64,000 nucleotides of DNA from Candidatus Moraniibacteriota bacterium (GCA_963778555.1 CAVZUR010000004.1:180151-244150), one strand, 5' to 3'. Positions 1,754 to 56,803 are shown, counted from the first letter of the stretch. Notes: generated by a model from the sequence alone, not told the origin. Program-made: numbers and translations.

Positions 1754-1762
1754 GAGACCGAC

Positions 1763-2338: not shown

Positions 2339-2353
2339 CCCCAGGAGCGCACC

Positions 2354-2647: not shown

Positions 2648-2656
2648 GAATCCATC

Positions 2657-2953: not shown

Positions 2954-3047
2954 TGACTCTCCGCCCACCCCGCGCCACGCGCAAACAAAGAGACGACCCA
3001 CCCCGGGCCGTCTCGCTTTTTTTATTCTATTCACTCATCCCTCAAAC

Positions 3048-10824: not shown

Positions 10825-10925
10825 GCTGAAAGCGCTTGGTGTTTCTTTTATTTCCTTTATTGTAGCGTCTCGGTAGCCTTTCGTAAATTGAATCAGCGAG
10901 CTTTTTTGCGTATACTGAAGCCACT

Positions 10926-12665
10926 ATGCATCTCCCACCGCTTTCCTCCCGCCATCCGTGGCTCATGGCCATGTCCGGAGGCGTGCTCGCGCTCATCTTA
11001 GCGCTCACTCTCGCCCTGTTCGGCTGGTTCCAGCCAGTACTCTCGCTTCTCGCGCTGATGTTCCTCGCGGGCGGCGTTGGCCTAGCCCTCTTCACACTCT
11101 CCCAGCAGCACGATCGGACGCGCCTCATCGTCCTGGCCGCACTCACCCTCTTTGCGGCGCTTATTGTGCTCCGGGCCGAACCCTCCGTCTTCACCGGCCG
11201 CGATCAAGGCTCGATTGCGCTCGCCGCCTGGGAACTGGCGCAGGGACACGAACTCGCATTCAAGAGCCCGACTGGCGAAACATTCTTCGCGATCTATGGT
11301 CCCGGCCGGGCGCTCAATTTCCCCGGCTTTAGCTATACCGATACCGGTGCGCTCATTACTCAGTTTCCGCTTGGTTATATCGCTTACCTCGCGCTCTTCA
11401 CACAGTGGTTCGGTCTGAGCGGCCTCCTCGTCGCCAATGCCATCCTCTTCATCCTCTCGGGCTGGACGTTTTTCGAGTTACTTTCGCTTTTTGTCAGCCG
11501 GCGGAATGCCCTGCTTGGAATAACGCTCTTTGCGACTTCTTTTCTCCCGCTCTGGCTCGCTCAGCTCGCGCTCACTGAAAATCTCGCACTCCTACTGTTT
11601 CTCACCCTGACGGTCTCCCTTGTCCGTCTTGAGCAAAAGTTGGATGCCAGCGTTCTCCCTCTGCTCATCCTCTCGGGTTTCCTTCTCGCCTTGACGCGCA
11701 TCGAGGGCTTCGTCATCGCTCCGCTCGCCATCGGCTATATTCTGATCCGCCCGAAACTCCGCGCCCACCTCTTGGCGCTACCCAAACGCTGGACGATCCC
11801 CACACTCCTGTTTCTCGGCTTTCTCTTCCTCCGAGACTTCTTCATGAATCTTCCCTTTTACACGATGATTGCCAAGGCTGCGCTCAAATACTGGCAAGAA
11901 ATCGGCGTCAGCGGCAGTGGTGGCAATGAACCGAATCTCGGACCAATTTTCATCTCATACGGCCTCTTCGCGGTCTTCGTGCTTGGCATCGCCTCGATCG
12001 GTTTCGATCTCCTGAAGCGGCGCTTCGCGCTCCTCATTCCTGTGCTGCTTGCGCTCCCGACTTTCATCTACCTCTTTGACGGTCATATCTCAGATGATCA
12101 CCCATGGCTCTTGCGTCGGTATGCCTTTACGCTGTTCCCGCTTTTTCTCCTCGCTACCGTCATGCTCTGGAACACTCTTGAGGAGAAGCTGGCCGCCAAC
12201 CGAAAAGCACTCTTTGCGTTCGGCGTTTTTCTCATCCTTTTGACGCTTCAGCTGCGACCGGCCTACGAAGCGCTTTCGGTCGTCGAGTACGACACACTGT
12301 ACGACCAGGCACGCGCTTTCGGCGAGCAGTTCACCGACCGCGATCTCATCCTGATCGACCGCCAATCTTCAGGCGATCCGTATGCCCTCATGGCCGGCCC
12401 CCTCGCCGCCCTCGACGGGAAGAATGCCGTTTATTTTTTCAATCCCGAAGACTATGCTCGAATTGACCGCAACCGTTTCGAGCATGTCTATTTCCTCACG
12501 ACCGAGGACAGCCTCGGCCGGTACGCCGAAGCCTTCGGTAATGAACTGCTCCCAGTCGAGGTCGTCTCTTTCTCGCACCCAACCCTCGCGGCACCCAAGC
12601 CCTACGCTTGGCCGGGACAAGTCTTGATTGTCAGCGATGCAATCCTCTTCGAAGTAACGAAATGA
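10926..12665 (+). CDS. polytopic membrane protein, GT-C-like (ArnT/PMT-type) glycosyltransferase candidate
   Basis: 579 aa with >10 predicted TM helices and a soluble C-terminal domain. Architecture resembles GT39/GT83. No diagnostic motif was verified. Confidence 0.5.
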   Translation: MHLPPLSSRHPWLMAMSGGVLALILALTLALFGWFQPVLSLLALMFLAGGVGLALFTLSQQHDRTRLIVLAALTLFAALIVLRAEPSVFTGRDQGSIALAAWELAQGHELAFKSPTGETFFAIYGPGRALNFPGFSYTDTGALITQFPLGYIAYLALFTQWFGLSGLLVANAILFILSGWTFFELLSLFVSRRNALLGITLFATSFLPLWLAQLALTENLALLLFLTLTVSLVRLEQKLDASVLPLLILSGFLLALTRIEGFVIAPLAIGYILIRPKLRAHLLALPKRWTIPTLLFLGFLFLRDFFMNLPFYTMIAKAALKYWQEIGVSGSGGNEPNLGPIFISYGLFAVFVLGIASIGFDLLKRRFALLIPVLLALPTFIYLFDGHISDDHPWLLRRYAFTLFPLFLLATVMLWNTLEEKLAANRKALFAFGVFLILLTLQLRPAYEALSVVEYDTLYDQARAFGEQFTDRDLILIDRQSSGDPYALMAGPLAALDGKNAVYFFNPEDYARIDRNRFEHVYFLTTEDSLGRYAEAFGNELLPVEVVSFSHPTLAAPKPYAWPGQVLIVSDAILFEVTK

Positions 12666-13825
12666 CGGCTATGCGACCCCCTTTCATTCCGCTCCCCGAA
12701 CATCTCCAGCCGCTGTACACGAAGCTCCGGATCACCCTCGTGATCAGTCTCTTGGCAGTTTTCATCGGCGTCGCACACGCTTTTCTCTTTCCGACCATCG
12801 AGACCAGTTTCGATTTCCGCAATCCGAAATCCAGCCGGAATCAAATCTTCGACCCGCGCTCACCAAACGGTATGCCCCGAACCAACGGCAAGATCGAAAT
12901 AGAGGGCGAGCTCGTCGCCAATACCAGCCCGTTGGGGGATTTTTCCCGCCTCTCCGTCGCACTTGATCTTGAAAAGAAATCCGAAAATCCGAACCAGGTC
13001 GAGATAGCCGTTCGGAAGAACTACCGAGCTTTTCTCTTCCCAGTCGGAGAAAACCTCACCGGTTTTCCCGCCGCTGACCTCTATCGCATCGGTGATGTAT
13101 ACTACTCGCTCCAAGACGGGCGTCTGCACCCATTCGTGAGCGAGTCAGCGTTCCGCTCCCGGTATTCGGAAACTGCTGCGAAGATCGCAGCAGCTGAAAT
13201 GTTGGAGCGGCATCCAACCACTCCCGATTTCACCGGGTTCCGCGTCGGCAGCCTCATTTCATTTGCGGATGGTGTTTACGTCGTCGTGAGTGAGACTGAG
13301 ATCCGGCCGATCGGCAGCGCCGAAATCTTTCTTTCACTCGGGTACCATTTCGAGGATGTCATCCCGGTCAATGAAGAGGATCTCGGAATCTACAAACGCG
13401 GGCGTATCCTCCTCTTGGGTGCGTCCCATCCCGATGGCACGCTCTTTGAGGATCAGGATTCAGGCAGGCTCTACCTGATTGAAAATGGCTTGCGGCGCCC
13501 AATCGCGAATGGCGATTATCACGATTTTCTCATTTCGCAGCAGCACCCGATTCTCGCTCGTGAGCCGGGCGAGCGAGAAGTCGCTCGCTGCACCGCCACC
13601 GCCGGCGTCTTCCCGCGTGCGCTCCACTGCTCTCTGGAACTCGTCGCACTCGCCGATACGGTCGGGCCGGATTATGAAATCACGCTCTCGGGCGCCGATA
13701 CCGATATCAATATCGCAGCCTCCACGCTCGCCTTCGAGACCCGTCTTGACGCAGAGAACCTGAAAACACTCCTCGCCAAGATAAAACAGCGGCTGCTCGC
13801 ACGCTTCGGACTGACTCCGTCATAA
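12662..13825 (+). CDS. hypothetical membrane-anchored protein
   Basis: Start 'ATGA' overlaps the stop of the upstream gene. Single N-terminal TM (ITLVISLLAVFIGVAHAFLF). Translationally coupled with the GT-C-like gene. Confidence 0.5.
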   Translation: MTAMRPPFIPLPEHLQPLYTKLRITLVISLLAVFIGVAHAFLFPTIETSFDFRNPKSSRNQIFDPRSPNGMPRTNGKIEIEGELVANTSPLGDFSRLSVALDLEKKSENPNQVEIAVRKNYRAFLFPVGENLTGFPAADLYRIGDVYYSLQDGRLHPFVSESAFRSRYSETAAKIAAAEMLERHPTTPDFTGFRVGSLISFADGVYVVVSETEIRPIGSAEIFLSLGYHFEDVIPVNEEDLGIYKRGRILLLGASHPDGTLFEDQDSGRLYLIENGLRRPIANGDYHDFLISQQHPILAREPGEREVARCTATAGVFPRALHCSLELVALADTVGPDYEITLSGADTDINIAASTLAFETRLDAENLKTLLAKIKQRLLARFGLTPS

Positions 13826-35935: not shown

Positions 35936-38683
35936 TCAAGGTCCCCGTATTCCTCGCTCCACTGATCGGTCATACGCTGTCGTCGTGCTGTACATATCCT
36001 GGGCATTGAAGGACCAGTAGCCTTCAAGCGATGTATCGACGCCGGTGGGGGTAGTGAGGCGATAGAGGTTGGCGATCTCTTCCTGGGAGAGAGCGCGGTC
36101 ATACACCCGCGCTTCATCGAGGGAGCCAGCGAAGGGCACACCGTTGTCGGCTTCAGCGCCGAGACGGAAAGCCACCGCATTGGCCAGGGTGCCGATGTTT
36201 CCGATGGTGCCGGTATCGGTGGCGCCATTGGGAGCGCCATTGATGTAAAGCTCGGTCCCAGTCGCCGAGTCTTGATCCCAAACGAAGGCGAAGTGATTCC
36301 AACCCGCAGCGGTGAAGGTAGAGGCTGAGGTGACGGAGTACTCATCGACCGCATCCGAGACTTCGCAGATGAGGGCGTCGGCGGCGGAGATGTAGCAGAG
36401 ATAGCCGGTATCGGCGGCGGTGATGCCGTTTCGTTTGGCGATGATGGTATCGTCGGTGGTGAAGGTAGAGCGGTTGAACCAGCCGGTCAGGGTGAAGTCT
36501 TCAGTATCAGCGAAGTCAAGAGTGGCCGTATCGGCCGTGGTGGCATAGTCATCGGTGCCGTCAAAGGTGATACCTGAGCCAATCTGTCCGGTGGTCCAGG
36601 TGGGGCCATTGGTGAGGGTGAGGGAAGCGATGGCGTTGGTGGAGGAGTCAGCGGCGGCGGTACCGGTGTTCTCGTCGAGGGTGAAGTAGCCGGTGAGGCC
36701 AGAGTCGAGACGGCCGGTGCCTTGGGATTGGGAGACAGAGGAGTTCACCTTGTCGGGAGCGCTCTGGTCATACAGGGATTTGATCTCGGCAGCAGAGAGA
36801 AAACGATTGTAGACGCGGACTTCGTCGATTTCACCGTCAAAGAACTCTGCCGCGGCAGTTTCAATGGCGCCGATACGAAAGCTCGAGGAAGCATCGGCAG
36901 GCGAAGTACCGACCGGCGTACTGTGTTCCAGCACCGGTACGGAAACACCGTTAATGAAAAAGGTTGGGTCATTGGCGACGGATGAATCATTGTATTCGAC
37001 ACAGACATGCGACCAGGCATTCAGCGGGACAGCGTCATCGGGTGCAGCCCAGCGGCCGATAGTCGTCCCGAAGCCGACCCATAATTGCAGCCGATTCGGG
37101 CTGACAGTATCGCTGAATTCAAAGTCCCACCCCGTCCCAGCATCATCCTTGGACATGATATTGGCGTACGTGGCCGGTATCGAATCCGGATGAATCCAGG
37201 CACAAGCGGTCAAATTGGCGATATCGTCGAGACTCGTCCCTGAGCCAGCATTCACATAGTCTGCCGTCCCATCGAAATCAAGTGCTTGGCCGAGTCTGCC
37301 CGGTACCTTGGGCGGAGCGCTGACCAGTGTCCCCGTATTCCTCGCCCCGCTCCGATCATACGCCGTCGTCGTGCTGTACATATCCTGCGCATTGAAGGAC
37401 CAGTAGCCTTCAAGCGCTGTATCGACGCCAGTGGGGGTAGTGAGGCGATAGAGGTTGGCGATCTCTTCCTGGGAGAGAGCGCGGTCATACACCCGGGCTT
37501 CATCGAGGGAGCCAGCGAAGGGCACACCGTTGTCGGCTTCAGCGCCGAGACGGAAAGCCACCGCATTGGCCAGGGTGCCGATGTTTCCGATGGTGCCGGT
37601 ATCGGTGGCGCCATTGGGAGCGCCATTGATGTAAAGCTCGGTCCCAGTCGCCGAGTCTTGATCCCAAACGAAGGCGAAGTGATTCCAACCCGCAGCGGTG
37701 AAGGTAGAGGCTGAAGTGACGGAGTACTCATCGACCGCATCCGAGACTTCGCAGATGAGGGCGTCGGCGGCGGAGATGTAGCAGAGATAGCCGGTATCAG
37801 CGGCGGTGATACCGTTTCGTTTGGCGATGATGGTATCGTCGGTGGTGAAGGTAGAGCGGTTGAACCAGCCGGTCAGGGTGAAGTCTTCAGTATCAGCGAA
37901 GTCAAGGGTGGCCGTATCGGCCGTGGTGGCATAGTCATCGGTGCCGTCAAAGGTGATGCCTGAGCCAATCTGTCCGGTGGTCCAGGTGGGGCCATTGGTG
38001 AGGGTGAGGGAAGCGATGGCGTTGGTGGAGGAGTCAGCGGCGGCGGTACCGGTGTTCTCGTCGAGGGTGAAGTAGCCGGTGAGGCCAGAGTCGAGACGGC
38101 CGGTGCCTTGGGCTTGGGAGACAGAGGAGTTCACCTTGTCGGGAGCACTCGTGTCATACAGGGCTTTGATCTCGGCGGCGGAGAGGAGGCGATTATAAAC
38201 ACGGACTTCGTCGATGGAGCCGTCGAAGAATTCCGATATATGTGCGCCGATGACAAGATTGGCTGCAGCATCGCTTGTTGCTGTCCCTACCGGCACGTCT
38301 AGCTCCGTAAAACGAACAGAGACGCCATTGATGTACAAAACCGGGTCGTTGGCAGCTGAGGAATCATTGTAGGTCGCGCAGACATGTTGCCAGGCATTGA
38401 GTGTTATCGTACCGTTGGCCGTGAGCCAATTCGCATTATTAGTAGTAAAACTTCGAAAAAGATCCAGAGCATTCCCGCTAGCCACATTGGTAATCTGAAA
38501 TGACCAGCCCGCCGATCCTGTATACTTGGCAGCAATTTGAGCCCAGGTGATAGGAATTGACTGCGGATAGATCCAGGCGCAGACGGAAAGGTTCACTAAA
38601 TCATCTACGATAGCGGCTGATCCCGCATTCACCAAGTCCGCCGTTCCATCGAAATCAAGTGCTTGGCCAAGCTTCCCTGGCAC
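35936..38683 (-). CDS. giant surface protein, central part: two full ~460-aa tandem repeats, each with two LamG/concanavalin-like domains
   Basis: 915-aa ORF with internal near-identical 460-aa repeats ('KVNSSVSQ[AS]QGTGRLDSGLTGYFTLDENTGT...LDEARVYDRALSQEEIANLY...FDGEIDEVRVYNRFLSAAEIKSLYD'). The ORF ends where the repeat junction gains +2 nt. Confidence 0.7.
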   Translation of the reverse strand: MPGKLGQALDFDGTADLVNAGSAAIVDDLVNLSVCAWIYPQSIPITWAQIAAKYTGSAGWSFQITNVASGNALDLFRSFTTNNANWLTANGTITLNAWQHVCATYNDSSAANDPVLYINGVSVRFTELDVPVGTATSDAAANLVIGAHISEFFDGSIDEVRVYNRLLSAAEIKALYDTSAPDKVNSSVSQAQGTGRLDSGLTGYFTLDENTGTAAADSSTNAIASLTLTNGPTWTTGQIGSGITFDGTDDYATTADTATLDFADTEDFTLTGWFNRSTFTTDDTIIAKRNGITAADTGYLCYISAADALICEVSDAVDEYSVTSASTFTAAGWNHFAFVWDQDSATGTELYINGAPNGATDTGTIGNIGTLANAVAFRLGAEADNGVPFAGSLDEARVYDRALSQEEIANLYRLTTPTGVDTALEGYWSFNAQDMYSTTTAYDRSGARNTGTLVSAPPKVPGRLGQALDFDGTADYVNAGSGTSLDDIANLTACAWIHPDSIPATYANIMSKDDAGTGWDFEFSDTVSPNRLQLWVGFGTTIGRWAAPDDAVPLNAWSHVCVEYNDSSVANDPTFFINGVSVPVLEHSTPVGTSPADASSSFRIGAIETAAAEFFDGEIDEVRVYNRFLSAAEIKSLYDQSAPDKVNSSVSQSQGTGRLDSGLTGYFTLDENTGTAAADSSTNAIASLTLTNGPTWTTGQIGSGITFDGTDDYATTADTATLDFADTEDFTLTGWFNRSTFTTDDTIIAKRNGITAADTGYLCYISAADALICEVSDAVDEYSVTSASTFTAAGWNHFAFVWDQDSATGTELYINGAPNGATDTGTIGNIGTLANAVAFRLGAEADNGVPFAGSLDEARVYDRALSQEEIANLYRLTTPTGVDTSLEGYWSFNAQDMYSTTTAYDRSVERGIRGP

Positions 38684-39520
38684 CTTGGGAGGCGCGCTCG
38701 TGAGCGTCCCCGTATTCCGCGCACCGTTCTGTCATACGCTGTCGTCGTGCTGTACATATCCTGGGCATTGAAGGACCAATAGCCTTTCAGTCCCGTATCG
38801 ACGCCGGTGGGGGTAGTGAGGCGATAGAGGTTGGCGATCTCTTCTCCTGAGAGAGCGCGGTCATACACCCGGGCTTCATCGAGGGAGCCAGCGAAGGGCA
38901 CACCGTTGTCGGCTTCAGCGCCGAGACGGAAAGCCACCGCATTGGCCAGGGTGCCGATGTTTCCGATGGTGCCGGTATCGGTGGCGCCATTGGGAGCGCC
39001 ATTGATGTAAAGCTCGGTCCCAGTCGCCGAGTCTTGATCCCAAACGAAGGCGAAGTGATTCCAACCCGCAGCGGTGAAGGTAGAGGCGGAGGTGACGGAG
39101 TACTCATCGACCGCATCCGAGACTTCGCAGATGAGGGCGTCGGCGGCGGAGATGTAGCAGAGATAGCCGGTATCAGCGGCGGTGATACCGTTTCGTTTGG
39201 CGATGATGGTATCGTCGGTGGTGAAGGTAGAGCGATTGAACCAGCCGGTCAGGGTGAAGTCTTCAGTATCAGCGAAGTCAAGAGTGGCCGTATCGGCCGT
39301 GGTGGCATAGTCATCGGTGCCGTCAAAGGTGATGCCTGAGCCAATCTGTCCGGTGGTCCAGGTGGGGCCATTGGTGAGGGTGAGGGAAGCGATGGCGTTG
39401 GTGGAGGAGTCAGCGGCGGCGGTACCGGTGTTCTCGTCGAGGGTGAAGTAGCCGGTGAGGCCAGAGTCGAGGCGGCCGGTGCCTTGGGGTGTGGCAATGG
39501 ACGTATTGGTTTGCTGTCCG
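35940..39520. repeat. tandem ~1.38-kb nucleotide repeats (about 2.6 copies) underlying the LamG protein
   Basis: Marker 'tcatacgc[ct]gtcgtcgtgctgtacatatcc' recurs at 35969, 37355 and 38733. Copies are >97% identical over >1 kb. Confidence 0.85.
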
Positions 39521-39615
39521 GCCCGGGCGGAGAAATACCAATAGCCAGCCCCCAACCCTAGGAGAATGGCGATAATCCCTAGCCACTGCCATGTACGGCC
39601 GCTAGTATATGTCAT
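38629..39615 (-). CDS. giant surface protein, N-terminal part (TM anchor + first LamG repeat)
   Basis: Start at MTYTSGR immediately after the GIY-YIG stop. TM 'WQWLGIIAILLGLGAGYWYF'. Then the same repeat sequence. The frame is lost at a -1 nt repeat junction (~38715). Confidence 0.65.
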   Translation of the reverse strand: MTYTSGRTWQWLGIIAILLGLGAGYWYFSARAGQQTNTSIATPQGTGRLDSGLTGYFTLDENTGTAAADSSTNAIASLTLTNGPTWTTGQIGSGITFDGTDDYATTADTATLDFADTEDFTLTGWFNRSTFTTDDTIIAKRNGITAADTGYLCYISAADALICEVSDAVDEYSVTSASTFTAAGWNHFAFVWDQDSATGTELYINGAPNGATDTGTIGNIGTLANAVAFRLGAEADNGVPFAGSLDEARVYDRALSGEEIANLYRLTTPTGVDTGLKGYWSFNAQDMYSTTTAYDRTVRGIRGRSRARLPRCQGSLAKHLISMERRTW

Positions 39616-39881
39616 AGAGCTAGACCCGTTAGAGACAGGAAGCGTTTCAATCGATTCTTTAGGTAGCGTTTTCCCATACCAGTCTTTAGGTACTTTTCTC
39701 GAGTGAAAGCATCGTGCACATCGATACAAGCTTCATAATAAATGATAGCAAATGGACCTCGGCCGTTGGTAGATGATACTTTTCCAGCAGCATGCTCATT
39801 GAAACGCTTCCGCATGTCTTCGGTACAGCCGGTATACCATTTTCCATCCTTTTTGCTTTTGAGCACGTAGGTGTAAAACAT
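39612..39881 (-). CDS. small GIY-YIG nuclease family protein
   Basis: 'FYTYVLKSKKDGKWYTGCTEDMRKRFNEH' is a GIY...YIG motif with conserved R and E. 89 aa from MFYTY. Confidence 0.6.
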   Translation of the reverse strand: MFYTYVLKSKKDGKWYTGCTEDMRKRFNEHAAGKVSSTNGRGPFAIIYYEACIDVHDAFTREKYLKTGMGKRYLKNRLKRFLSLTGLAL

Positions 39882-47587: not shown

Positions 47588-48682
47588 TCAGTTTTCACTG
47601 TAACTCTCAAGCTGACTCTTGAACTCCATGGAATAGATCTCGCCCAGCGCGAGGAAGAGCGACACAATGATAGGCCCGATGATGAATCCCGGGAGACCGA
47701 AGAGTGCGATGCCGCCCAAAGTTGCGAAGAAAACCATCAGCGGGTGCATCTGGGTATCTTTCCCGACGAGCTTCGGTCGCAAGATATTATCAATCAGCGA
47801 GATCACCCCGAACCCCACGATCAGGATGAAGACACCCTGCCAAATCTGGCCCAACAGGAGAAGAATGATACCGACTGGCAGCCACACCAGGCCGGATCCG
47901 ACGAATGGGATGATCGAGAGCAGAATCATAAGAAGTCCCCAGATTGCGGGCGAAGGCACTCCGACGATCCAAAAAGCCAGCCCGCCGAGCAATCCCTGGA
48001 TGGCGCCGACAACCAGCGTGCCCTTCAGTGTCGCCCGGCTGATCGAGATGAATTTCGTCGCCAGAAGCGTTTCATGTTCGGTCTTGAGCGGTGAGAGCTT
48101 GATGAGATGACCGAACGCCTTCTGCCCATCGATGAGAAAATAGAAAAGGGTAAAGAACATGACAAACACCCAGAAGATGAAGTGTGTCACGCTCTGGTAG
48201 GCGGCCTGGAGCAGCCCGAGGGCGTTCTGGCTAAATTGCCGGATATCTTCCATCACGCTTTCTGTCGTGAACGCTGCATCCTTGAAAACAATCTGACCAA
48301 AAGCGGTCTGGTGGATCGTATTGACCGTGGTTTCGACAACACCGGCAAATGAGCGCTCTTCGCCGATGCTATGGTACAAATGATTCGCTTCGGCCACCGC
48401 CAAAGAAAGGACGGAGAGGATCGGGGTGACAATAATGAGTGCCACCAACAGGCACGTCACCAGGGAAGCGCTCGTCTCTCTATCGCCAAATATCCGTTTC
48501 AGCGATTCATAGACCGGCCGGAACAGGACCGAAAGAATCGCCGCCGCGACAATGGCCGTGAGAAAAGGCTGGAAAATGAAGAATACCGTGCCGCCCACGA
48601 TAAACATGATGAGGAAGAAGAAATAGATGTTGAGATTGCGTACCTGCATACCAGAAAACGAGCTGATTTTATCACGTATCAA
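47588..48682 (-). CDS. AI-2E family transporter (PerM/UPF0118)
   Basis: 8 TM with conserved 'IPFVGSGLVWLPVGIILLL' and 'LRPKLVGK'. Confidence 0.8.
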   Translation of the reverse strand: MIRDKISSFSGMQVRNLNIYFFFLIMFIVGGTVFFIFQPFLTAIVAAAILSVLFRPVYESLKRIFGDRETSASLVTCLLVALIIVTPILSVLSLAVAEANHLYHSIGEERSFAGVVETTVNTIHQTAFGQIVFKDAAFTTESVMEDIRQFSQNALGLLQAAYQSVTHFIFWVFVMFFTLFYFLIDGQKAFGHLIKLSPLKTEHETLLATKFISISRATLKGTLVVGAIQGLLGGLAFWIVGVPSPAIWGLLMILLSIIPFVGSGLVWLPVGIILLLLGQIWQGVFILIVGFGVISLIDNILRPKLVGKDTQMHPLMVFFATLGGIALFGLPGFIIGPIIVSLFLALGEIYSMEFKSQLESYSEN

Positions 48683-49657
48683 TACCCCGATTATAGCCGG
48701 AAATAGCCGATTTGGGAAAAACCTGGAAATTCGGCTTCCCGAGAAGTATCTGAGCGTTCACAGAGAGCGTCAATTTTCCCCGAATCAGCTGCTTGGCATG
48801 TGGCGGTCGGACAGACAGAGTCAATCCGTAGTGTCTTTCGAAATAGGCTTTGATACCAGTGCGCGTAGCATAGCCTTTCGGTAGGAGAAAGGGTTGATAT
48901 TTTTTTTGGTTCGAAGAATAGTACTGTCGGTGTTTCTCGTGAAGAATGACGATAGCCCGGGCTTCGGTCCAATCCTGTCGCCCGGTGAGTCTCATCGTTT
49001 TCTTTTTCTCCTCCTGTTTTCCACGCTCACGATAATACACGCACCGGAAACGAAGCGGGCAGGCCTCGCATTTCGGCTGGGCGACACAGAGCGCGCTGCC
49101 GAAATCCATGAGGGCCGCGTTCAGGGATTTTCTTGGCGTCATAAACTTGGCCTCAAAGGAACCTTCGTCGATCAGAGCTTGCCGTGTCCCAAAGAAAAAA
49201 CGGCCGATGACTCGCTTCAGATTCGTATCCCAGGCCAAGTGATTGTCCCGAAAGGCGAAACTCAGAATAGCCGCCGCTGTATACGGTCCGATACCGGGAA
49301 TTTTCTCAAGGAGTTTTTTTCACGCGGGAATTTTCCAGCATACTTGTTCGCGATAATCTGAGCCGCCAGGAGCATATTGCGTCCCCGCGCATAGTAGCCC
49401 AGCCCGGCATAATACGGGAGAAATTCCTCCCAGCTAACCCGTGCCAACATCTCGACCGTTGGAAACTTTTTGAGAAAACGCGTGTAGTACCCGATCACCC
49501 GCGACACCTGCGTCTGCTGCAACATAATCTCCGATACCCACACTTCGTACGCTGTAATCCCCCTCTTCCGCCAGGGCAATTCCGTCCTGCCCGCTTTGCG
49601 GAAAAAATCCATCAGGTACCGCTCAAAAAATACAATTTTGTCTTTCCGAATTGACAT
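48672..49657 (-). CDS. mutY: A/G-specific adenine DNA glycosylase; frameshift at a T7 homopolymer (~49315-49321)
   Basis: N-terminal HhH-GPD 'YEVWVSEIMLQQTQV...AGLGYYARGRNM' is in ORF 49262..49657. '[4Fe-4S] CVAQPKCEACPLRFRCVYY' plus the NUDIX-like MutY C-terminal domain is in ORF 48672..49238. Confidence 0.7.
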
Positions 49658-49670
49658 AGACATCATTCTT

Positions 49671-50747
49671 TCAATCCTGGATGACTCCCCCACCCAGACA
49701 GTACTCACCGCTGTAAAACACGGCGTATTGACCCGACGCAATCCCAGTGTCGGTTTCTTTTTGAAGCACGACTTCGAGCGTATTTTCGTCTTGCCACTGA
49801 ACTTGGCAGCCATATTCCTTTGGTCCATGGCGCAGCTTCACCGAAAGCCCCATACCATCTTCCGGCTTTTCATTAAACCAATTCAGATTTGTCACGGTGA
49901 AGGAGTTCCGGGCTCGTTCCGCCCGATGCTCCGCATGTGAAATCGAGATGGTATTCGTCACTCTGTCCTTTGCCACCACATACCACGGTCCGCCCGACAA
50001 GCCGATACCCTCCCGCTGACCGATAGTGAAATACCAAAAGCCCTGGTGTTCACCGAGTACCTTCCCGGTCTCGGATTCTACGAGCGGGCCTTTTTTTACT
50101 CCGAGGTGGTGTTTGAGAAACGCATCGAAGGGAATCTTGCCAAGAAAACAAATACCCTGGCTATCTTTGCGTTTCGCGTTCGGGAGTTGGAACCTCTCAG
50201 CTAACGCCCGGACTTCTGGCTTCGTATACTGGCCGATGGGAAAGAGCGCCCGGGACAGCTGCGCCTTCGAAAGCTGAGATAGAAAATAAGTCTGGTCCTT
50301 CACTTCATCGAGCGTCTTCTTCAGATATATGTTCCCTCCTCGTTTCTCTCCCTGTGCATAGTGCCCAGTCGCAACCTTCGCATAGCCGTCCCCAATCGCA
50401 TCGGAAAATGCACCGAACTTGATCCGCGCATTGCAGAGCATATCGGGATTCGGTGTCCGGCAGGCCTTCACTTCGCTGATCGCCTCCGCCACCACGCGCT
50501 CCCAATACTCTTTCTGAAGCGGTATGATTTCAAGCGGCACGCCGAGCTGGTCCGTCACGGCCCGAACAAATTGCAAGTCCTCTTCCCAGGGACAGTCGCC
50601 CAAAAATGCCAGCTCATCCTCCAGCCAGATTTTTATATAGAACGCGGTCACATCGAAACCTGCCACTTTGAGAAGGGCGAGGGCGACCGAGCTATCAACG
50701 CCGCCCGAAACCAGAACGGCGATTTTTTCATTTTTTTCGGCAGTCAT
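49671..50747 (-). CDS. mnmA: tRNA-specific 2-thiouridylase
   Basis: 'IAVLVSGGVDSSVA' PP-loop, catalytic Cys 'CNARIKFG' and 'GICFLG'. Confidence 0.9.
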   Translation of the reverse strand: MTAEKNEKIAVLVSGGVDSSVALALLKVAGFDVTAFYIKIWLEDELAFLGDCPWEEDLQFVRAVTDQLGVPLEIIPLQKEYWERVVAEAISEVKACRTPNPDMLCNARIKFGAFSDAIGDGYAKVATGHYAQGEKRGGNIYLKKTLDEVKDQTYFLSQLSKAQLSRALFPIGQYTKPEVRALAERFQLPNAKRKDSQGICFLGKIPFDAFLKHHLGVKKGPLVESETGKVLGEHQGFWYFTIGQREGIGLSGGPWYVVAKDRVTNTISISHAEHRAERARNSFTVTNLNWFNEKPEDGMGLSVKLRHGPKEYGCQVQWQDENTLEVVLQKETDTGIASGQYAVFYSGEYCLGGGVIQD

Positions 50748-50762
50748 ACTCTGTACTGTAAC

Positions 50763-50794
50763 AAAAAAAGCAAGGCGCTGTGCGAGGCGCCTTG
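50763..50794 (-). terminator. Rho-independent terminator (hairpin caaggcgc/gcgccttg + U-run)
   Basis: 8-bp GC-rich stem (50771-78 / 50787-94) with an 8-nt loop. Followed on the minus strand by U7. Downstream of gene 50817..51227. Confidence 0.65.
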
Positions 50795-50816: not shown

Positions 50817-51227
50817 TTATGGGGACTGATACCGTTCAGTCTCCCGGACCCGCTGTCGGAACTTCCGTAAGAATTCCACGAGTTGTTCCCGGTGTCCGTA
50901 CTGGCCGCTCGACTTCGTCGTTGCCAAAACGGAAAGTTGGTCTTTCACCCATTTAATGCTGCAATCGGCATCGCTGGCGGCATTGGTGATGTCGTTGAAA
51001 ATCTCAAGCGGGTAATCCGCGAATGTGGGACGACTGTGCAGGCCGTCACTGATCACTCGGCGCACGAGATTGAGCGCGCCCATCTCCTGATACGCCTGAC
51101 CTAGTCCGCCATTGGCGGGACGAAAGAAATAGCGCCTGCTCGAAAGCGTCTGAATAACGATATCAGTAGACGACAACAAGTCAGTCAACGCCGGAAAGGG
51201 CGGACGGGACGAATTTCTCTTGGCCAT
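50817..51227 (-). CDS. hypothetical protein
   Basis: 136-aa ORF with a dedicated terminator. No recognisable motifs. Confidence 0.4.
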   Translation of the reverse strand: MAKRNSSRPPFPALTDLLSSTDIVIQTLSSRRYFFRPANGGLGQAYQEMGALNLVRRVISDGLHSRPTFADYPLEIFNDITNAASDADCSIKWVKDQLSVLATTKSSGQYGHREQLVEFLRKFRQRVRETERYQSP

Positions 51228-51308: not shown

Positions 51309-53321
51309 TCAAGATTCATTCTCCTTTTCCTGGCGAGCGCCATCAATGAGCGCCCGGACCGCACTAACGTTGATATCTGGCTTTCGGCGCAGCGCCTTAA
51401 ACTTCTTGGGTTCAATATGCTGGGTCTGAGAGAGTTTCATCGGAACTTCGGTAGAGGCATAGGCACGATGCTCGGTCGAACGGCGGTGCCCCTCCTCCGG
51501 TTTCCGGTCGACGGTCCGCGTCTCCGCGGCTGGCCTGGATTTTTCCAGCTGCGCTTGGCGCTCTCGCGCTACCGCTCGCTGATAATCACGCAGACAATCC
51601 TTGCAGAATGTCGGCCGCGAGGCATCCGGCTCAAATGGCACCTCGATATCAATGCCGCATGTCGCGCAGACCGCCGGATAGAGGATTTTTTCCGGGACGG
51701 TTTCGGGCAGCGTTTCATCAGCCGTGCGCTCTGTTTCTTCTAGCGTGAATGTTGGAGGGACGATGATCGGCTTCGCCAAAACGGGCGACACTTTCTTTTC
51801 AACCTTTTTCGCCTCTGAAGAAAGTGGCACTGGCGTTTCCTCCAGCAGCGGTATTTCAGCCGTGGCGAAGGAGTGAGCAGCCGCGGGTGCGACCGACTGT
51901 TGCACCGACTTCACGACCGGCTTGGAGACGGGTCTCGGTAGCGGTTTCGGAATCGGTTTCGGCCGCGGGGTAATCGGGGCTGGCGCAGGCGTCGCTGCCG
52001 GTGCGGGTCGCAGCGCCGCTTTCTCTTCATCCGTGAGCATGCCGGTCCAGCGACGAATCTTGTCCTCAACCTCTTGCTGCGACGAAGCATAGCGTTCGCG
52101 AGAACCAGCGATAACTTTATCGTTGATGCCCGGCGTTTCAATCAGAATCGGCGGTAAGGTCGTCGCCGAAAACGCGTCACCAGCGATGCCGTCGATCATG
52201 AGTTTCAGATAAATCTGGTATTTCGGTAGATTGATCAGGTCATTCATCATGAAGACCGGCTCGAATTCTTTTTCGAGGAGCTCCGCGTCGGGCGCGCCGA
52301 CCCGGAAAGCGACCAGCGTCCCGCAGTTGCCGAAAACCGCATCACTCACTTTTTCCTCAAGCTGCGTGATGTATTGGTTGGCGAGAATGAGCGACAGACG
52401 GTATTTACGCGCCTCGGAAAGAATGTTGGCGAACGAATCCGTCGCGAAATTCTGGAATTCGTCGACGTAGAGGTAGAAGTCCTTGCGTTCTTCCTCTGGG
52501 ATATCAGCCCGGCCCATCGCGGCAAGCTGGATTTTGGTGATCATCATCGCGCCCAGGAGCGCGCTCGAATCCTCGCCGATCTTGCCCTTGGCCAAGTTCA
52601 TGATGAGGATCTTCTTGTTATCCATGATTTCGCGCACATCGAACGCGCTCGTCGGCTGGCCGATGATGTTGCGGATGAGACTGTTCGATGTGAACTGCCC
52701 GACCTTGTTCTGAATCGGCGAAATAACTTCTTGCAGTACGCGCTCATTCCAACCGGCGAACTCGACGGTCCAGAACTGCTTCACCACTGGATCAGTGACT
52801 TTCTCCATCACACGTTCTCGGTAGCTTTTGTCGACAAGAATACGCATGACGCCCAACAGGCTCGCGCCCGGGTATTCAAGGAGAGCGAGGATAGCATTCC
52901 GCAGGATATATTCGAGCCGCGGCCCCCAAGAATCGGCCCAGATTTTCTTGAAAACACCGACCAAGCCCGACGCGACAAGCGACCGCTGGTCAGGTCCGAC
53001 CTGTTCGAGTACATTAAACGCGATCGGGAACGCCTGATCGGCCGGATCGAAATAGATGACATCGTTGATACGCTCCGGCGGGATGGCTTTGATGAGCTTT
53101 AACGCGACATCACCGTGCGGATCGATAAAGCAAATACCATGACCCTGCTGGATATCTTGGATAGCGAGGTTCTCGAGCAGATTGGTCTTGCCCATACCCG
53201 TCTTGCCCAAGAGGTACATGTGCCGCCGGCGGTCATCGGCTTTGATGCCGAACACGCGTTCCTGATTGCGGAAATTAGTCTTGGCGAAGACTGTGATTGG
53301 ATTGTCAGTGGGCTCAGGCAT
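51309..53321 (-). CDS. soluble VirD4/TraD-family (type IV coupling protein-like) P-loop ATPase with Pro-rich linker and C-terminal C4 zinc ribbon
   Basis: 'YLLGKTGMGKTNLL' Walker A, 'FYLYVDEFQNF' Walker B, 'ILANQ'. No N-terminal TM. 'PAPAATPAPAPITPRPKPIPKPLPRP' linker. 'CATCGIDIEV...PTFCKDC'. Confidence 0.7.
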   Translation of the reverse strand: MPEPTDNPITVFAKTNFRNQERVFGIKADDRRRHMYLLGKTGMGKTNLLENLAIQDIQQGHGICFIDPHGDVALKLIKAIPPERINDVIYFDPADQAFPIAFNVLEQVGPDQRSLVASGLVGVFKKIWADSWGPRLEYILRNAILALLEYPGASLLGVMRILVDKSYRERVMEKVTDPVVKQFWTVEFAGWNERVLQEVISPIQNKVGQFTSNSLIRNIIGQPTSAFDVREIMDNKKILIMNLAKGKIGEDSSALLGAMMITKIQLAAMGRADIPEEERKDFYLYVDEFQNFATDSFANILSEARKYRLSLILANQYITQLEEKVSDAVFGNCGTLVAFRVGAPDAELLEKEFEPVFMMNDLINLPKYQIYLKLMIDGIAGDAFSATTLPPILIETPGINDKVIAGSRERYASSQQEVEDKIRRWTGMLTDEEKAALRPAPAATPAPAPITPRPKPIPKPLPRPVSKPVVKSVQQSVAPAAAHSFATAEIPLLEETPVPLSSEAKKVEKKVSPVLAKPIIVPPTFTLEETERTADETLPETVPEKILYPAVCATCGIDIEVPFEPDASRPTFCKDCLRDYQRAVARERQAQLEKSRPAAETRTVDRKPEEGHRRSTEHRAYASTEVPMKLSQTQHIEPKKFKALRRKPDINVSAVRALIDGARQEKENES

Positions 53322-53381
53322 AAGATGCGTTGATCTTTAGGTAGACAGAGAAGACGGTCCCGAACGAGACTGGAGTGCTCA

Positions 53382-54659
53382 TCATTGTACTGGCAAATTG
53401 CCGGGTGCGCCACCGCGCTTGGAAGTGACGCGGGTGAGGGCAGGCGCCAGCACCTGCATGTCCGGCAAATGAAACACCGTTGCTAGCTCTTCGGACGAGA
53501 ACAAGAAGCGGTTTTCCACCGGATCGGAGTCTCGGGTAATGTAACGTCGGAAAATCCGGCGCTGGCGGTAACGCAGCCGCTGTTCCACCATGAGGTAGCC
53601 AGCGTATGTCTTTGTCAGATCATCCGGCACCATGCTGTTGAGCGTCAGGTCATTGAACTGCTTGATGCCACCGATGAAGGCCGACACGCCGGTCGCCTTG
53701 GAGAAATGCTCCCGCTTGCCAAGATAGATATGGCGCATCTTGGTCTGGAACATCGGTTTGCTGATATTGCTCTCGAGCGCCTTCAGGGTATCCTTCTGCC
53801 CCGGTGTCAGACGGAACTCGACCGGCTGTTCTTCAGCGGCCGCCTTTTCCTCAAGACTCGTCCACGTCAATTCATTACCCAAAAGACCGGAGAACAAGTT
53901 ACGAAACACATCCGACAAATCGTGCCAAACCCGCGCGAAAATGCCCATCCCCTTGACTTCTTCATGCCCGAGGAATTCTTCGATCGTCGCCTGGCCTTTT
54001 TTCGGTCCCCAGTCTTCTTTGATTGGCGTAATCAGAAATTGCAGCCACAAATGCTGGTCCGGACCGATCTTGCCCATCGTCTCGATCAGGCCAGCCAAGG
54101 GATCGATCATCTTCCCAGTCACCGACTCCTCGAAAAATTTATAGGTCCGGATCGGGTACAGGTCTGGTTTGAATAGCTTAAATTCAGTTCCCCAGAGGTC
54201 CCAGTCTTTGTTCGGGATGGTGCGTGGTACAGCTTTGGTGTAATCTTCCGCTTCGACGATTTCGACATTCGGATACTGGCCGTAAAAATGCGCCTCCACC
54301 AAGTTGCGAAACTGTTTCTGCGTGCGAATATACATGTGGACTTGGCCCTCGGTACTCACGAGTTCTAAGCAAAACTTCGCCGGAAACTCACCCAGGACGT
54401 ATTCTTCGAAAACGTTCGAGCTCTTGATGACACCGGCAAACCCAGAATAGATGAGCTCCATCGGGTGAGGGCTTTTTTCAAGCTCCTTGGGTGAAATGAT
54501 CTCGAGCAGCACCCACTCGATTTTACTCGAGAACTTCTCGTTTCGGCTGTCGAGCCACAGCAGCATGAAAATCGGGTATGCGAAAAACGGTACGACGACG
54601 TACCAGACGTCGCTCGCGACCGAGGCGATGACGGCGATATTGTGAAAAAATTCGGCCAT
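53382..54659 (-). CDS. hypothetical membrane-anchored protein (partner of the T4CP-like ATPase)
   Basis: 425 aa. N-terminal TM 'IAVIASVASDVWYVVVPFFAYPIFMLLWL'. No known motifs. 60-nt gap to the ATPase gene. Confidence 0.5.
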   Translation of the reverse strand: MAEFFHNIAVIASVASDVWYVVVPFFAYPIFMLLWLDSRNEKFSSKIEWVLLEIISPKELEKSPHPMELIYSGFAGVIKSSNVFEEYVLGEFPAKFCLELVSTEGQVHMYIRTQKQFRNLVEAHFYGQYPNVEIVEAEDYTKAVPRTIPNKDWDLWGTEFKLFKPDLYPIRTYKFFEESVTGKMIDPLAGLIETMGKIGPDQHLWLQFLITPIKEDWGPKKGQATIEEFLGHEEVKGMGIFARVWHDLSDVFRNLFSGLLGNELTWTSLEEKAAAEEQPVEFRLTPGQKDTLKALESNISKPMFQTKMRHIYLGKREHFSKATGVSAFIGGIKQFNDLTLNSMVPDDLTKTYAGYLMVEQRLRYRQRRIFRRYITRDSDPVENRFLFSSEELATVFHLPDMQVLAPALTRVTSKRGGAPGNLPVQ

Positions 54660-54764
54660 GCCACTGAAGTCACTCGTGAGTTAGAGAGCGTTGTCTCACT
54701 CCACTATGCAGTATAGAGGCTTGCGCCCCGCGCGAAAACCCCTCGTCGGAAAAGGGCTAGCGAC

Positions 54765-55850
54765 TTACTTCTTTTTCTCTGTGATCGAATAGATGTTCTT
54801 CCCCACTTTTGTGAAAAAACTGTTGAGATTGATGATGACCGTCGAACGCTTCACTTGGCGGACTTTCATAACTGCTTTCAGGAGCTCTTCGCGCGACATC
54901 GGTGCTTCTTTCTCCTTCAAGATAGATGAAAGCACCTCGCGCACCGTTCCTGGACGATAGCCCCAGTCCGACAAAGCGTATGTGCCCCGACCGACGAGAA
55001 CGAATCGGATATCTTTGATGAGTTCATTATGGACCGTCTGAGGATGAGTCTGCTTGCCATTCTTATACAGCCCGTGCTCGTCGATGAGGCGAGCAATCTC
55101 ACGGAAATGCAGTGGCTTCTTCATCACTTGAAGGATGAGGTGAGCACGTTCACGAGTACCACGCGGGCGCACGGCGCTCCAGTGTGACAAACCGTAGCGG
55201 CCGAAGACGTTCTTCTCGATTTCCGTCGATGGCGCGAGAAAATAATCAAAGGCTTCCTTTTCCATAGTCTGATCGCCGCTCTGCTTCACGTACAGCGCAT
55301 AGAGCTCCTCAAGCGACAGAACAGCGTCAGTCTCTTCGAGCAAATGTACAACAGTGGCAATCACCTTCTCCCAAGAAACCATGGAGAAGCCATCGATGGT
55401 GACAACGCTCTTTCGCTTGGCTGTCTCTTTGCTGATAGACATGCCCGGAAATGAAGACAGAAGCGCAAAGAACGCTTTTTTCTCTGAAACATCTCGGTCG
55501 CTCAATGTTTCCAAAAGGTCGTCAACCGCCACAATGCCGCCTCGCCTCTTAATGGCATCGGTGACACGGTGGATAAGTGAATGTTCCCGCTCACGCGAAA
55601 CAATCTCCTTGATACGAGTCATGATGACGTCGACGATCTGGCGCACACGCTCACGCGTGATGCCATGCACTTGTCCGATCTCCTCGAGAGTCTTCTCTCG
55701 CCCATCCGTGATGCCAAAACGCTCGCGGACGATTACGCCGGAACGATCCGGAAAAGACGCGAGCAGCACGTCCAACAGCTCCCGCATCGAACGAGCGCTT
55801 GACAGGCTGATAGAATCTATAGCTTTCCGTCTCTCGGCCATAAAAAACAC
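54765..55850 (-). CDS. sigma-70 region-4-like HTH DNA-binding protein with winged-helix C-terminal domain
   Basis: 'RERFGITDGREKTLEEIGQVHGITRERVRQI' (region 4.2-type HTH) at the N-terminus. Sigma regions 2 and 3 are absent. Confidence 0.55.
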   Translation of the reverse strand: MFFMAERRKAIDSISLSSARSMRELLDVLLASFPDRSGVIVRERFGITDGREKTLEEIGQVHGITRERVRQIVDVIMTRIKEIVSREREHSLIHRVTDAIKRRGGIVAVDDLLETLSDRDVSEKKAFFALLSSFPGMSISKETAKRKSVVTIDGFSMVSWEKVIATVVHLLEETDAVLSLEELYALYVKQSGDQTMEKEAFDYFLAPSTEIEKNVFGRYGLSHWSAVRPRGTRERAHLILQVMKKPLHFREIARLIDEHGLYKNGKQTHPQTVHNELIKDIRFVLVGRGTYALSDWGYRPGTVREVLSSILKEKEAPMSREELLKAVMKVRQVKRSTVIINLNSFFTKVGKNIYSITEKKK

Positions 55851-55965
55851 CGGGAATTAAGGTTTTTGAGAACGCCTCATATTAACGCATATTACGATAT
55901 TTTGTCAAGAGTCTGGACATAATTTACATCATTTTACTTTCCTTTATCCGAGCCCTTGTTTGCCA

Positions 55966-56047: not shown

Positions 56048-56803
56048 ATGCCCGACGTTTCTACCGAACCGAATTCACAGCCAGTTGCCGACCAGAGTAA
56101 CAAGATTCAGGCCCTCCGAGAAATGGTCTTGAATGCGGAGCGTACTATTCAGGGCGCCAAGGCGATGCTCCTACAGCTGGAGGGCAAGAAAAAAACCGGC
56201 CGGCCCAAGAAGACTGACGATGACGGTCTCGGCACGGTTATCGAGGGTGCTTTTGACGGTCAGATTATGTTCGGCACGGATGGGAAGCAGTATCCGGTTC
56301 CAGCGAACTACGCCTCCAAGTCGAAACTCGTGGAGGGCGATATGTTGAAGCTCACGATCACGCCCGACGGTTCTTTCATTTACAAGCAAATCGGACCGGT
56401 GGATCGGCGTCACGCGATCGGCATCGTCAGCCAGGATGAAAATGGTAACTACCATATCGTCGTTGAAGGTGAGCCATTCCGGGTCCTCCTCGCCTCAATT
56501 ACTTATTTCCGTGCGGAACCCGGTGACGAGGTGGCGGTAATGCTGCCTCGGGACCTCTCGGCCTCCTGGGTGGCAATTGAAAACATCCTCCAGAAAGGGG
56601 CCTTGGGCACACCCGCGCCAGCCGTCAAGAAGCCCAGCGAGCGCCATCTTAGTGCCGACTGGAAGAAAGACCTGGTGACCGAGAAACCCGCAGCAGCGGA
56701 TGGGGTGACGCCAGAGGAAAAATCAGACACTACGGTCTCCCCACTCGATGCGTGGGTTAAAGATATGGAAGCCATAGAAAAGGAAATCGCCGAGGGACGC
56801 TAA
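56048..56803 (+). CDS. hypothetical protein
   Basis: 251-aa ORF after an AT-rich promoter-like region. N-terminal coiled-coil-like segment. No SD. No known motifs. Confidence 0.5.
   Translation: MPDVSTEPNSQPVADQSNKIQALREMVLNAERTIQGAKAMLLQLEGKKKTGRPKKTDDDGLGTVIEGAFDGQIMFGTDGKQYPVPANYASKSKLVEGDMLKLTITPDGSFIYKQIGPVDRRHAIGIVSQDENGNYHIVVEGEPFRVLLASITYFRAEPGDEVAVMLPRDLSASWVAIENILQKGALGTPAPAVKKPSERHLSADWKKDLVTEKPAAADGVTPEEKSDTTVSPLDAWVKDMEAIEKEIAEGR

Follow-up and report, generated by a model that had tools for sequence, protein, structure and literature searches.

The locus described here raises the question of how an ATPase that resembles the coupling proteins of type IV secretion systems (T4SSs), and that has no membrane anchor of its own, could act at a bacterial membrane, and whether the genes beside it belong to the same machine. 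The locus lies in a stretch of 64,000 nucleotides from Candidatus Moraniibacteriota bacterium (GCA_963778555.1 CAVZUR010000004.1:180151-244150), referred to below as the window. Three open reading frames (ORFs), all on the minus strand, were read from the sequence at the positions given for them in an earlier account made from the sequence alone (the sequence-only reading). Along this Moranbacteria chromosome (Patescibacteria/Candidate Phyla Radiation, CPR) they follow one another 5′ to 3′ as a gene for a protein with a sigma-70 region 4 and a HARE-HTH domain (sigma-r4/HARE-HTH gene), a DUF8128 gene and the ATPase gene (Table 1). The DUF8128 protein and the ATPase probably form a split coupling-type ATPase, an assembly of membrane N-terminal domain (NTD) and motor in which DUF8128 would be the detached NTD, tethered by a transmembrane (TM) helix.

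Profile comparisons related the ATPase to T4SS coupling proteins. The Pfam family TrwB_AAD_bind (PF10412) matched residues 29-341 (E = 1e-9; 38.2 bits against a cut-off of 20.5), and matches were also obtained with TraG-D_C (1e-7) and T4SS-DNA_transf. When the ATPase profile was aligned with TrwB (R388) by hhalign, a probability of 95.9% (E = 5.4e-9) was reached over 268 columns, residues 22-323 corresponding to residues 111-393 of TrwB, and the alignment spanned Walker A, the inter-motif region (the region of the all-alpha domain) and Walker B. The same comparison with VirB4/TrwK gave 4% and covered the P-loop only; as to a VirB4-type motor, PF12846 (AAA_10) was not matched and TIGR00929 scored just 18 bits. 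TrwB and DotL were the best matches of the ATPase in sequence and profile searches of the PDB. HerA appeared there marginally (3.8e-3 over residues 294-369) and was gone in the profile search, while the Pfam family DUF87/HerA covered only the P-loop (residues 32-71, 8.9e-5); for FtsK neither a PDB match nor a Pfam FtsK_SpoIIIE match was obtained. Membership of FtsK/HerA, the grouping that the sequence-only reading had set as refuting its T4CP-like assignment (T4CP, type IV coupling protein), was therefore rejected. By sequence, the ATPase is grouped with the T4SS coupling proteins and not with VirB4, FtsK or HerA.

The ATPase is not a canonical T4CP, because it has no TM anchor, scores below all curated TraD/VirD4 cut-offs and is nearer to plasmid-borne ATPases than to TrwB. 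Hydropathy analysis of all 670 residues revealed no hydrophobic segment at the TM threshold, in agreement with the earlier account. The NCBIfam equivalog cut-offs were far from reached (SXT_TraD, 59.4 bits against 366; TOL TraD, 41 against 648). ATPases borne on plasmids (348 plasmids; Bacillota, Actinomycetota, haloarchaea and certain Proteobacteria) were much closer to it than TrwB, sharing 28-43% identity with about 90% of the core aligned, and the best single profile for the core was mad8 of PADLOC (1.7e-17, 62 bits, residues 12-371). In Natrinema pNATPE01 (L087:2554-9191) and Bradyrhizobium p131_1 (L086:3059-9170), homologues of the ATPase were located beside genes with TIR domains, CHAT domains and TPR. 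Besides serving in conjugation, the subfamily therefore seems to have been taken up by conflict systems.

Behind the core, the Pro-rich spacer was visible in the alignment and the C-terminal C4 zinc ribbon matched both zf_Tbcl_2 of Pfam (5.6e-11) and TIGR04272 (CxxC-x17-CxxC) of NCBIfam (1.4e-12), so that both features proposed earlier were recovered. The zinc ribbon was present in 47 of 66 complete CPR orthologues; a domain of the zf_Tbcl_2 type binds zinc experimentally (PMC12704099). The PKKFK-like motif of the tail was lineage-restricted and occurred only in six of the 66 orthologues, those of Moranbacteria. Across Patescibacteria the core was 56-80% identical to the window protein, and 112 of its 430 positions were at least 97% conserved. 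Identity across lineages, taken at the same loci, was 64% for the ATPase core, 38% for MnmA and 33% for DUF8128.

The 425-residue protein encoded upstream had been described as having no recognisable domains. This held for the local Pfam and NCBIfam copies, in which 22 members gave no match even at E values up to 10, but the protein does contain a catalogued domain of unknown function, DUF8128 (PF26449), assigned by a precomputed tag on the identical protein and on all listed homologues. A sequence-profile search of the PDB with DUF8128 returned chance matches only. The family comprises at least 1,667 clusters at 50% identity. With the C-terminal signature motif EELATVFHLPDM as the scan pattern, it was found in at least 577 species-level genomes, and all of those with informative names were Patescibacteria. 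The single N-terminal TM segment of the earlier account was recovered both by hydropathy and as a long helix in a structural model. Lysine and arginine residues across 142 members numbered 0.47 before this segment and 3.26 in the 20 residues after it, a bias which, under the positive-inside rule, indicates an N-out, C-in orientation. The globular domain is thus predicted to be cytoplasmic, on the same side of the membrane as the ATPase.

Synteny was determined in 80 loci from many CPR lineages, the most query-similar of the at least 577, and 75 of these had enough sequence. In 68 of these 75, the gene directly downstream of DUF8128, and co-oriented with it, was that of the ATPase; the median distance from the DUF8128 stop to the ATPase start was 15 bp, and the genes often overlapped. 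Most of the seven exceptions encoded longer forms of DUF8128 in a different gene context, frequently behind secDF. Longer variants of 484-504 residues with an extended C terminus (L043:5994-7448, L044:9854-11353, L055:9845-11302 and L079:1032-2546) had no T4CP-like ATPase within 10 kb downstream and may represent a paralogous subfamily with a different partner. The Patescibacteria-type module was also carried by metagenome-assembled genomes titled 'uncultured Gammaproteobacteria', 'Bdellovibrionales' and 'Binatia' (L003, L006, L012, L024, L027, L041, L045, L046, L055, L058 and L080); gene content and synteny were CPR-like, and the labels are probably taxonomic misassignments of CPR bins.

The two modules were found joined in a single chain elsewhere. 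In the Bacillus licheniformis plasmid protein WP_128472464.1 (885 residues; 27.7-kb plasmid), residues 41-311 are homologous to DUF8128 (hhalign 98.5%, E = 2.9e-15; hidden Markov model E = 2e-20) and are followed by an ATPase domain of the same clade as the CPR motor at residues 345-774 (hidden Markov model E = 2.6e-48). The motif EELATVFHLPDM aligned to EEMAAIMRLPSE ahead of the ATPase domain in this protein; its place in fused chains is before the junction with the ATPase part. On the plasmid the fused gene is followed by a Replic_Relax relaxase gene, genes for an AAA_10 VirB4, a VirB6-like protein and a CwlT-like hydrolase are also present, and no other coupling protein is annotated. The fusion was found on 18 Bacillaceae plasmids, and further fusions were detected in Haladaptatus (on a haloarchaeal plasmid) and, weakly, in the actinomycete Embleya, while Natrinema showed the split form with an NTD gene directly upstream of the ATPase gene (E = 6.5e-18). 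None of the non-CPR homologues had a TM helix. On a Patescibacteria contig (UBA2196, L029), a split pair (9893-13270) and a fused paralogue (1479-4049) were observed about 6 kb apart, the latter having 856 residues with a DUF8128-like part at residues 23-416 and the ATPase at residues 418-842. Plasmid pLS20 was rejected as a home of the fused protein, as it has a canonical two-TM VirD4.

The check on co-conservation of the membrane protein with the ATPase thus turned out in favour of the proposal, with 68 of 75 loci and fusions elsewhere. That the membrane protein supplies the missing anchor is well supported by this co-conservation, by the fusions and by the predicted cytoplasmic domain, but anchoring is not all that DUF8128 represents: the CPR-specific tether is confined to the TM helix, because the fused relatives share the large domain and yet have no TM segment.

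An AlphaFold2 model of DUF8128, built from the 142-sequence alignment (predicted local distance difference test, pLDDT, 92.2; predicted template modelling score, pTM, 0.87), showed an alpha/beta domain preceded by a long helix at the N terminus. When the model was compared with the PDB by Foldseek, the best 14 matches were all TrwK/VirB4 of R388 (probability 0.97-1.00, E = 2e-5 to 6e-3), and the 50 matches listed included no VirB4 structures of the C-terminal domain only and no TrwB, FtsK or HerA. The modelled fold is read as resembling the NTD of VirB4.

A counterpart of the module was identified in Southlakia epibionticum from the published Tables S1 and S2 of Wang et al. 2023 (PMC10633639). 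As in the window, a sigma70_r4 and HARE-HTH gene stands directly upstream of a T4CP-like ATPase gene: SEML1_0294 (349 residues; PF04545 at residues 27-72, PF05066 at residues 225-283) precedes SEML1_0293, which matches the three Pfam families found in the window ATPase and has a P-loop domain from about residues 361-402 (PMC10633639). The Southlakia ATPase differs in length, with 921 residues against 670 in the window, and its NTD is apparently fused in the same chain, because about 360 residues stand ahead of the P-loop domain. Both families are core and Patescibacteria-enriched, and by transposon sequencing SEML1_0294 was essential and SEML1_0293 non-essential (PMC10633639). Normalised reads of SEML1_0293 fell over the passages from 5,817 to 2,940 and 1,372 while those of its neighbours remained flat (PMC10633639), which is read as a mild fitness cost. 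A second Southlakia paralogue, SEML1_0142 (FtsK-like by ECOD), was essential.

In the split coupling-type ATPase proposed here, the motor would be the downstream TrwB/VirD4-type ATPase, with both Walker motifs intact and presumably a hexamer like its relatives, and the TM helix of DUF8128 would put the conserved domain on the cytoplasmic face of the membrane. DUF8128 would recruit the ATPase ring and organise it at the membrane, ATP would then drive the feeding of a macromolecule (DNA, or an unfolded or DNA-bound protein) into a channel encoded elsewhere, and the Pro-rich linker, the zinc ribbon and the C-terminal tail might act as an arm for recognition of the substrate or partner. Physical interaction, ring formation, substrate and channel are what we infer from the data above. 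By analogy, the Patescibacteria T4SS would be the most plausible channel, because the fused relatives sit in a conjugative context.

Several observations weigh against this interpretation. With respect to coupling to a T4SS, none of the 80 related loci had a VirB4-like ORF closer than 10 kb to the module, and just 148 of 5,713 Patescibacteria T4CP homologues are near virB4 (PMC12102498). In Southlakia the T4SS is essential and SEML1_0293 is not (PMC10633639). The high conservation of the ATPase is atypical of coupling proteins of mobile elements. With respect to the NTD, the likeness to VirB4 is at the level of the fold only, with TM-scores (template modelling scores) of 0.33-0.38 that come without aligned residue ranges, and hhalign comparison of the DUF8128 profile with TrwK and with the N terminus of a Bacillus (Gram-positive) VirB4 yielded nothing. 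Finally, about 9% of the DUF8128 genes, mostly those of the longer variants, have no adjoining ATPase gene, and co-occurrence was counted from the DUF8128 side, on the best 80 of at least 577.

The third protein had been said to contain only a sigma-70 region 4 and a winged-helix domain. This agrees with the domain matches, which were to a sigma-70 region 4 and a HARE-HTH. Region 4 was closest to that of SigA in the PDB (3.9e-13); sigma region 2 was not detected, and the NCBIfam sigma matches covered just the C-termini of the profiles and stayed far below the cut-offs. The protein failed the test for the delta subunit of RNA polymerase (RpoE), with 40.4 bits for TIGR04567 against a cut-off of 42 and a match confined to residues 234-296; unlike in RpoE delta, the HARE-HTH domain is internal in the 361-residue protein and no acidic tail follows it. 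The longest ORF, of 361 residues, begins at a GTG at position 55850, and the public gene call begins at an ATG at position 55841 and gives 358 residues; the latter is the likely start. The protein may bind DNA or RNA polymerase.

The sigma-r4/HARE-HTH gene was located directly upstream of the DUF8128 gene in 55-57 of 74-75 loci (about 75%). At 10 or more loci, including L040, L043, L055, L058, L059, L061, L064, L066 and L072, secD (about 690 residues) and secF (about 300 residues) preceded DUF8128 in its place, and in L018:399-3740 the order was secF, sigma-r4/HARE-HTH, DUF8128. In loci lacking the sigma-r4/HARE-HTH gene, secD-secF were the usual predecessors of DUF8128, which may reflect a recurrent link to Sec accessory genes or plain lineage synteny. 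The sequence-only reading had put the conserved three-gene arrangement forward for testing as a functional unit. The arrangement does recur across Patescibacteria and is not due to chance, but the genes do not constitute one obligate functional unit, as their essentiality differs in Southlakia. The sigma-r4/HARE-HTH protein is not a dedicated accessory of the ATPase, because it is essential there while the ATPase is not; its gene is probably co-transcribed with the pair.

A T4SS-independent role stays alive because of the missing T4SS linkage, the proportion of T4CP homologues near virB4 and the contrast in essentiality in Southlakia. The split ATPase might be a chromosomal DNA translocase that serves uptake through the competence channel, DNA segregation or DNA export, and the recognition of DNA would fall to the zinc ribbon and the sigma-r4/HARE-HTH protein; this is regarded as rather unlikely. 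It would agree with the lack of T4SS genes near the module, in the window and in the 80 loci, with an ATPase conserved above its housekeeping neighbours and with a gene for a DNA-binding protein next to it in most loci. The majority of T4CP homologues in Patescibacteria lie at a distance from virB4, and it has been proposed that they were exapted (PMC12102498). SEML1_0293 and comEC were both dispensable in co-culture, which fits a competence-type function that is unselected in the laboratory. No competence genes were linked to the module in the examined loci, however, and the fused form, in its closest characterised setting, stands beside a relaxase among conjugation genes. The essential sigma-r4/HARE-HTH gene next to a non-essential ATPase gene also speaks against an obligate pair, and segregation could be covered by the essential FtsK-like paralogue SEML1_0142.

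It is rather doubtful, but conceivable, that DUF8128 and the ATPase represent an ancient branch of T4SS ATPases, intermediate between VirB4 and VirD4 with a VirB4-like NTD and a VirD4-like motor, that survived and was domesticated in Patescibacteria as a chromosomal, TM-tethered translocase independent of any conjugative T4SS. DNA or nucleoprotein would then be moved, for example in concert with the essential sigma-r4/HARE-HTH protein, and such a branch, if true, would be a lineage-defining machine of the epibiotic lifestyle. As proposed for the pair, VirB4/TrwK combines a non-catalytic NTD with a RecA-like motor and relies on a small TM partner for its membrane association; it differs in that the window motor is VirD4-like and outside a T4SS cluster, and sequence comparison revealed no similarity of DUF8128 to TrwK or to a Gram-positive VirB4 N terminus. 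Stand-alone proteins resembling the VirB4 NTD (TrsD) are known in Patescibacteria (PMC12102498). The TrsD homologues mostly adjoin virB4, whereas DUF8128 adjoins a T4CP-like gene.

That the module is an anti-phage or conflict system, in which a Mad8-type ATPase would work with a HARE-HTH sensor of modified or foreign DNA, is very improbable. Mad8 of the MADS system (PADLOC PDLC04140) belongs to the same ATPase subfamily as the window core, matches it over nearly its full length and is its top PADLOC profile; the sigma-r4 domain also matches MzaA, HARE-HTH is common in restriction-type proteins (Pfam description), and some non-CPR homologues adjoin CHAT, TPR or TIR genes. The Mad8 profile, however, has 314 positions and neither an NTD nor a zinc ribbon, and MADS is an eight-gene mad operon with a methyltransferase, whereas neither a methyltransferase nor any other mad gene lies alongside the window module, which is flanked by MnmA, DnaX and GtrA-like genes. 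DUF8128 had no PADLOC match, and the Southlakia counterpart of the sigma-r4/HARE-HTH gene is essential. A patchy distribution and fast evolution are typical of defence systems, whereas the module is near-universal, syntenic and vertical, with core-gene-like conservation of an ATPase that is 56-80% identical across classes.

Least probable of all is that the three genes are mere neighbours in a conserved housekeeping order and DUF8128 is an unrelated membrane protein: long syntenic blocks are indeed kept in Patescibacteria genomes, secD-secF rather than the sigma-like gene can precede DUF8128, and seven of 75 DUF8128 genes are without the ATPase, but the independent fusions in Bacillota, a haloarchaeon, an actinomycete and a CPR genome, together with the same split pair in Natrinema, argue for a direct functional link between DUF8128 and the ATPase because they would otherwise be hard to explain, an argument that is weaker for the third gene.

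The split coupling-type ATPase can be compared with known systems as follows. TrwB (R388), VirD4, TraD and DotL have a nucleotide-binding domain that is homologous to the window ATPase from Walker A through Walker B. Canonical T4CPs have a built-in anchor, usually of two helices, whereas the window ATPase has none and is accompanied by a separate single-TM partner of 425 residues. It further differs from them in its C-terminal zinc ribbon, in the lack of relaxase or T4SS linkage in the window and in its chromosomal location, vertical inheritance and much higher conservation. Among architectures whose context can be interpreted, the nearest is the Bacillaceae plasmid 'DUF87 domain-containing protein' WP_128472464.1 (NZ_CP035190.1), which has the same two modules in the same order as the CPR pair and occupies the position of a coupling protein beside a relaxase. 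It is about 22-32% identical to the CPR proteins and differs in being a single chain without TM segment or zinc ribbon, borne on a plasmid within a complete Gram-positive conjugation set.

Orphan T4CP-like ATPases had been described in the sequence-only reading as widespread and unexplained, which matches the literature, where orphan VirD4-like genes in Patescibacteria and the suggestion of exaptation have already been published (PMC12102498). Literature searches yielded no paper naming DUF8128 or PF26449 and none on Patescibacteria together with HARE-HTH, and the consulted papers on T4SSs make no mention of an upstream partner, a zinc ribbon or a sigma-r4/HARE-HTH neighbour. The link of DUF8128 to the orphan ATPase therefore appears to be new. 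The proposed split, TM-tethered and zinc-ribbon-bearing coupling-type ATPase is a core chromosomal feature of the phylum. Much of bacterial diversity belongs to the Patescibacteria, most of which are uncultured. Thousands of orphan coupling-protein homologues have been reported from them (PMC12102498). The pairing gives the large DUF8128 family its first functional context, the tether would explain the membrane access of a coupling protein without TM segment, and SEML1_0293/0294 provide a concrete candidate complex in the one genetically tractable relative, Southlakia. The finding also bears on the divergence of the VirB4 and VirD4 ATPases.

Table 1. Features of the module in the window (positions counted from the first nucleotide of the window; aa, amino acid residues of the encoded protein)
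Feature	Position	Strand	Evidence or remark
Sigma-70 region-4 + HARE-HTH (+ further winged-helix) gene	54765..55850	-	Pfam: Sigma70_r4 aa 30-81 (4.9e-10), HARE-HTH aa 234-296 (5.1e-14)
DUF8128 (PF26449) protein, 425 aa, N-terminal TM + large conserved domain	53382..54659	-	Precomputed PF26449 tag
N-terminal TM helix of DUF8128, about aa 8-46	54522..54638	-	Hydropathy peak aa 8-26; continuous helix aa 2-46 in model
C-terminal signature motif EELATVFHLPDM of DUF8128, aa 390-401	53457..53492	-	A393, H397, P399 invariant in 142 sequences
Soluble TrwB/VirD4-like P-loop ATPase, 670 aa	51309..53321	-	Core aa 1-430 = 52032..53321; Pfam PF10412, PF12696, PF02534
Walker A GKTGMGKT, aa 39-46	53184..53207	-	G39, G42, G44, K45 invariant in 67 CPR sequences
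Walker B YLYVDEF, aa 283-289	52455..52475	-	D287, E288, F289 invariant in 67 CPR sequences; aligns to TrwB Walker B region
Pro-rich linker of low complexity and variable length, about aa 437-545	51687..52013	-	Gappy, unconserved alignment columns
C4 treble-clef zinc ribbon CxxC-x17-CxxC, aa 547-578	51588..51683	-	C552, C555, C573, C576 invariant in ATPase alignment
Basic C-terminal tail 'Y.S...P..LSQ...I.PKKFKAL...VRALI', aa 621-660	51342..51461	-	Y621, P627, P638, K639, K640, F641, K642 invariant in alignment
Promoter-like site TTGACA-18-TAATAT	55879..55908	-	Consensus scan, 10/12 matches; upstream of sigma-r4/HARE-HTH gene

The module is chromosomal and lies in a housekeeping neighbourhood, and it hardly occurs on viral contigs. 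It is flanked by MnmA and a 136-residue ORF on the ATPase side and by a 251-residue ORF, a GtrA-like gene and DnaX on the other. The rest of the window encodes housekeeping proteins, namely a Clp-type AAA protein, two HtrA-like proteases, an aminoacyl-tRNA synthetase, SufS/SufC, XseA, MnmA and DnaX; Pfam scans of 20 further large ORFs returned housekeeping families only, and the only further proteins with a Walker A motif were the Clp-type AAA protein, SufC and DnaX. On the basis of this Walker-A check and these scans, the earlier statement that the 64-kb window contains no VirB4, VirB6 or relaxase could be upheld. A phage or mobile origin was rejected, as one partial match was obtained in 2.9 million viral contigs and the base composition of the window was uniform.

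The promoter-like site upstream of the sigma-r4/HARE-HTH gene is weak evidence for a possible start of the transcription unit, and the regional total of such sites was barely above the shuffled expectation. The divergent 251-residue ORF (56048..56803, plus strand) showed no family match, and its conservation beside the module was limited to loci of the Moranbacteria type (L002-L006, 61-74% identity); it has a 197-bp intergenic region in common with the sigma-r4/HARE-HTH gene, with promoter-like sites on both strands. The 136-residue ORF between the ATPase gene and mnmA (50817..51227, minus strand) had no family match, and none of the 80 related loci contained a homologue. The stop codon of the ATPase gene is overlapped by a promoter-like site, and downstream of the ORF, which may not be a real gene, there is a strong terminator-like hairpin (50771..50794). 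Neither of these two ORFs was counted as part of the module, because conservation beside it did not extend past close relatives.

Two further observations were made elsewhere in the window. A base-excision repair gene of the HhH-GPD type (MutY/Nth-like; 48672..49828, minus strand) was apparently split into two adjacent ORFs of 188 residues. The ORF at 49262..49828 matched the HhH-GPD profile incompletely, over 81 of its 108 positions, and that at 48672..49238 contained the Cys-rich segment 'CEACPLRFRC'; a frameshift, a pseudogene or an assembly error could account for this. At 35936..39729 (minus strand), two adjoining ORFs of 915 and 366 residues were built of Laminin_G_3/concanavalin-like lectin repeats (E = 1.7e-102). 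Nowhere else in the window is GC skew positive (+0.16 at 36-40 kb, about -0.07 outside this interval), and the ORFs, which coincide with the interval, may represent a surface adhesin gene that was possibly acquired or inverted.

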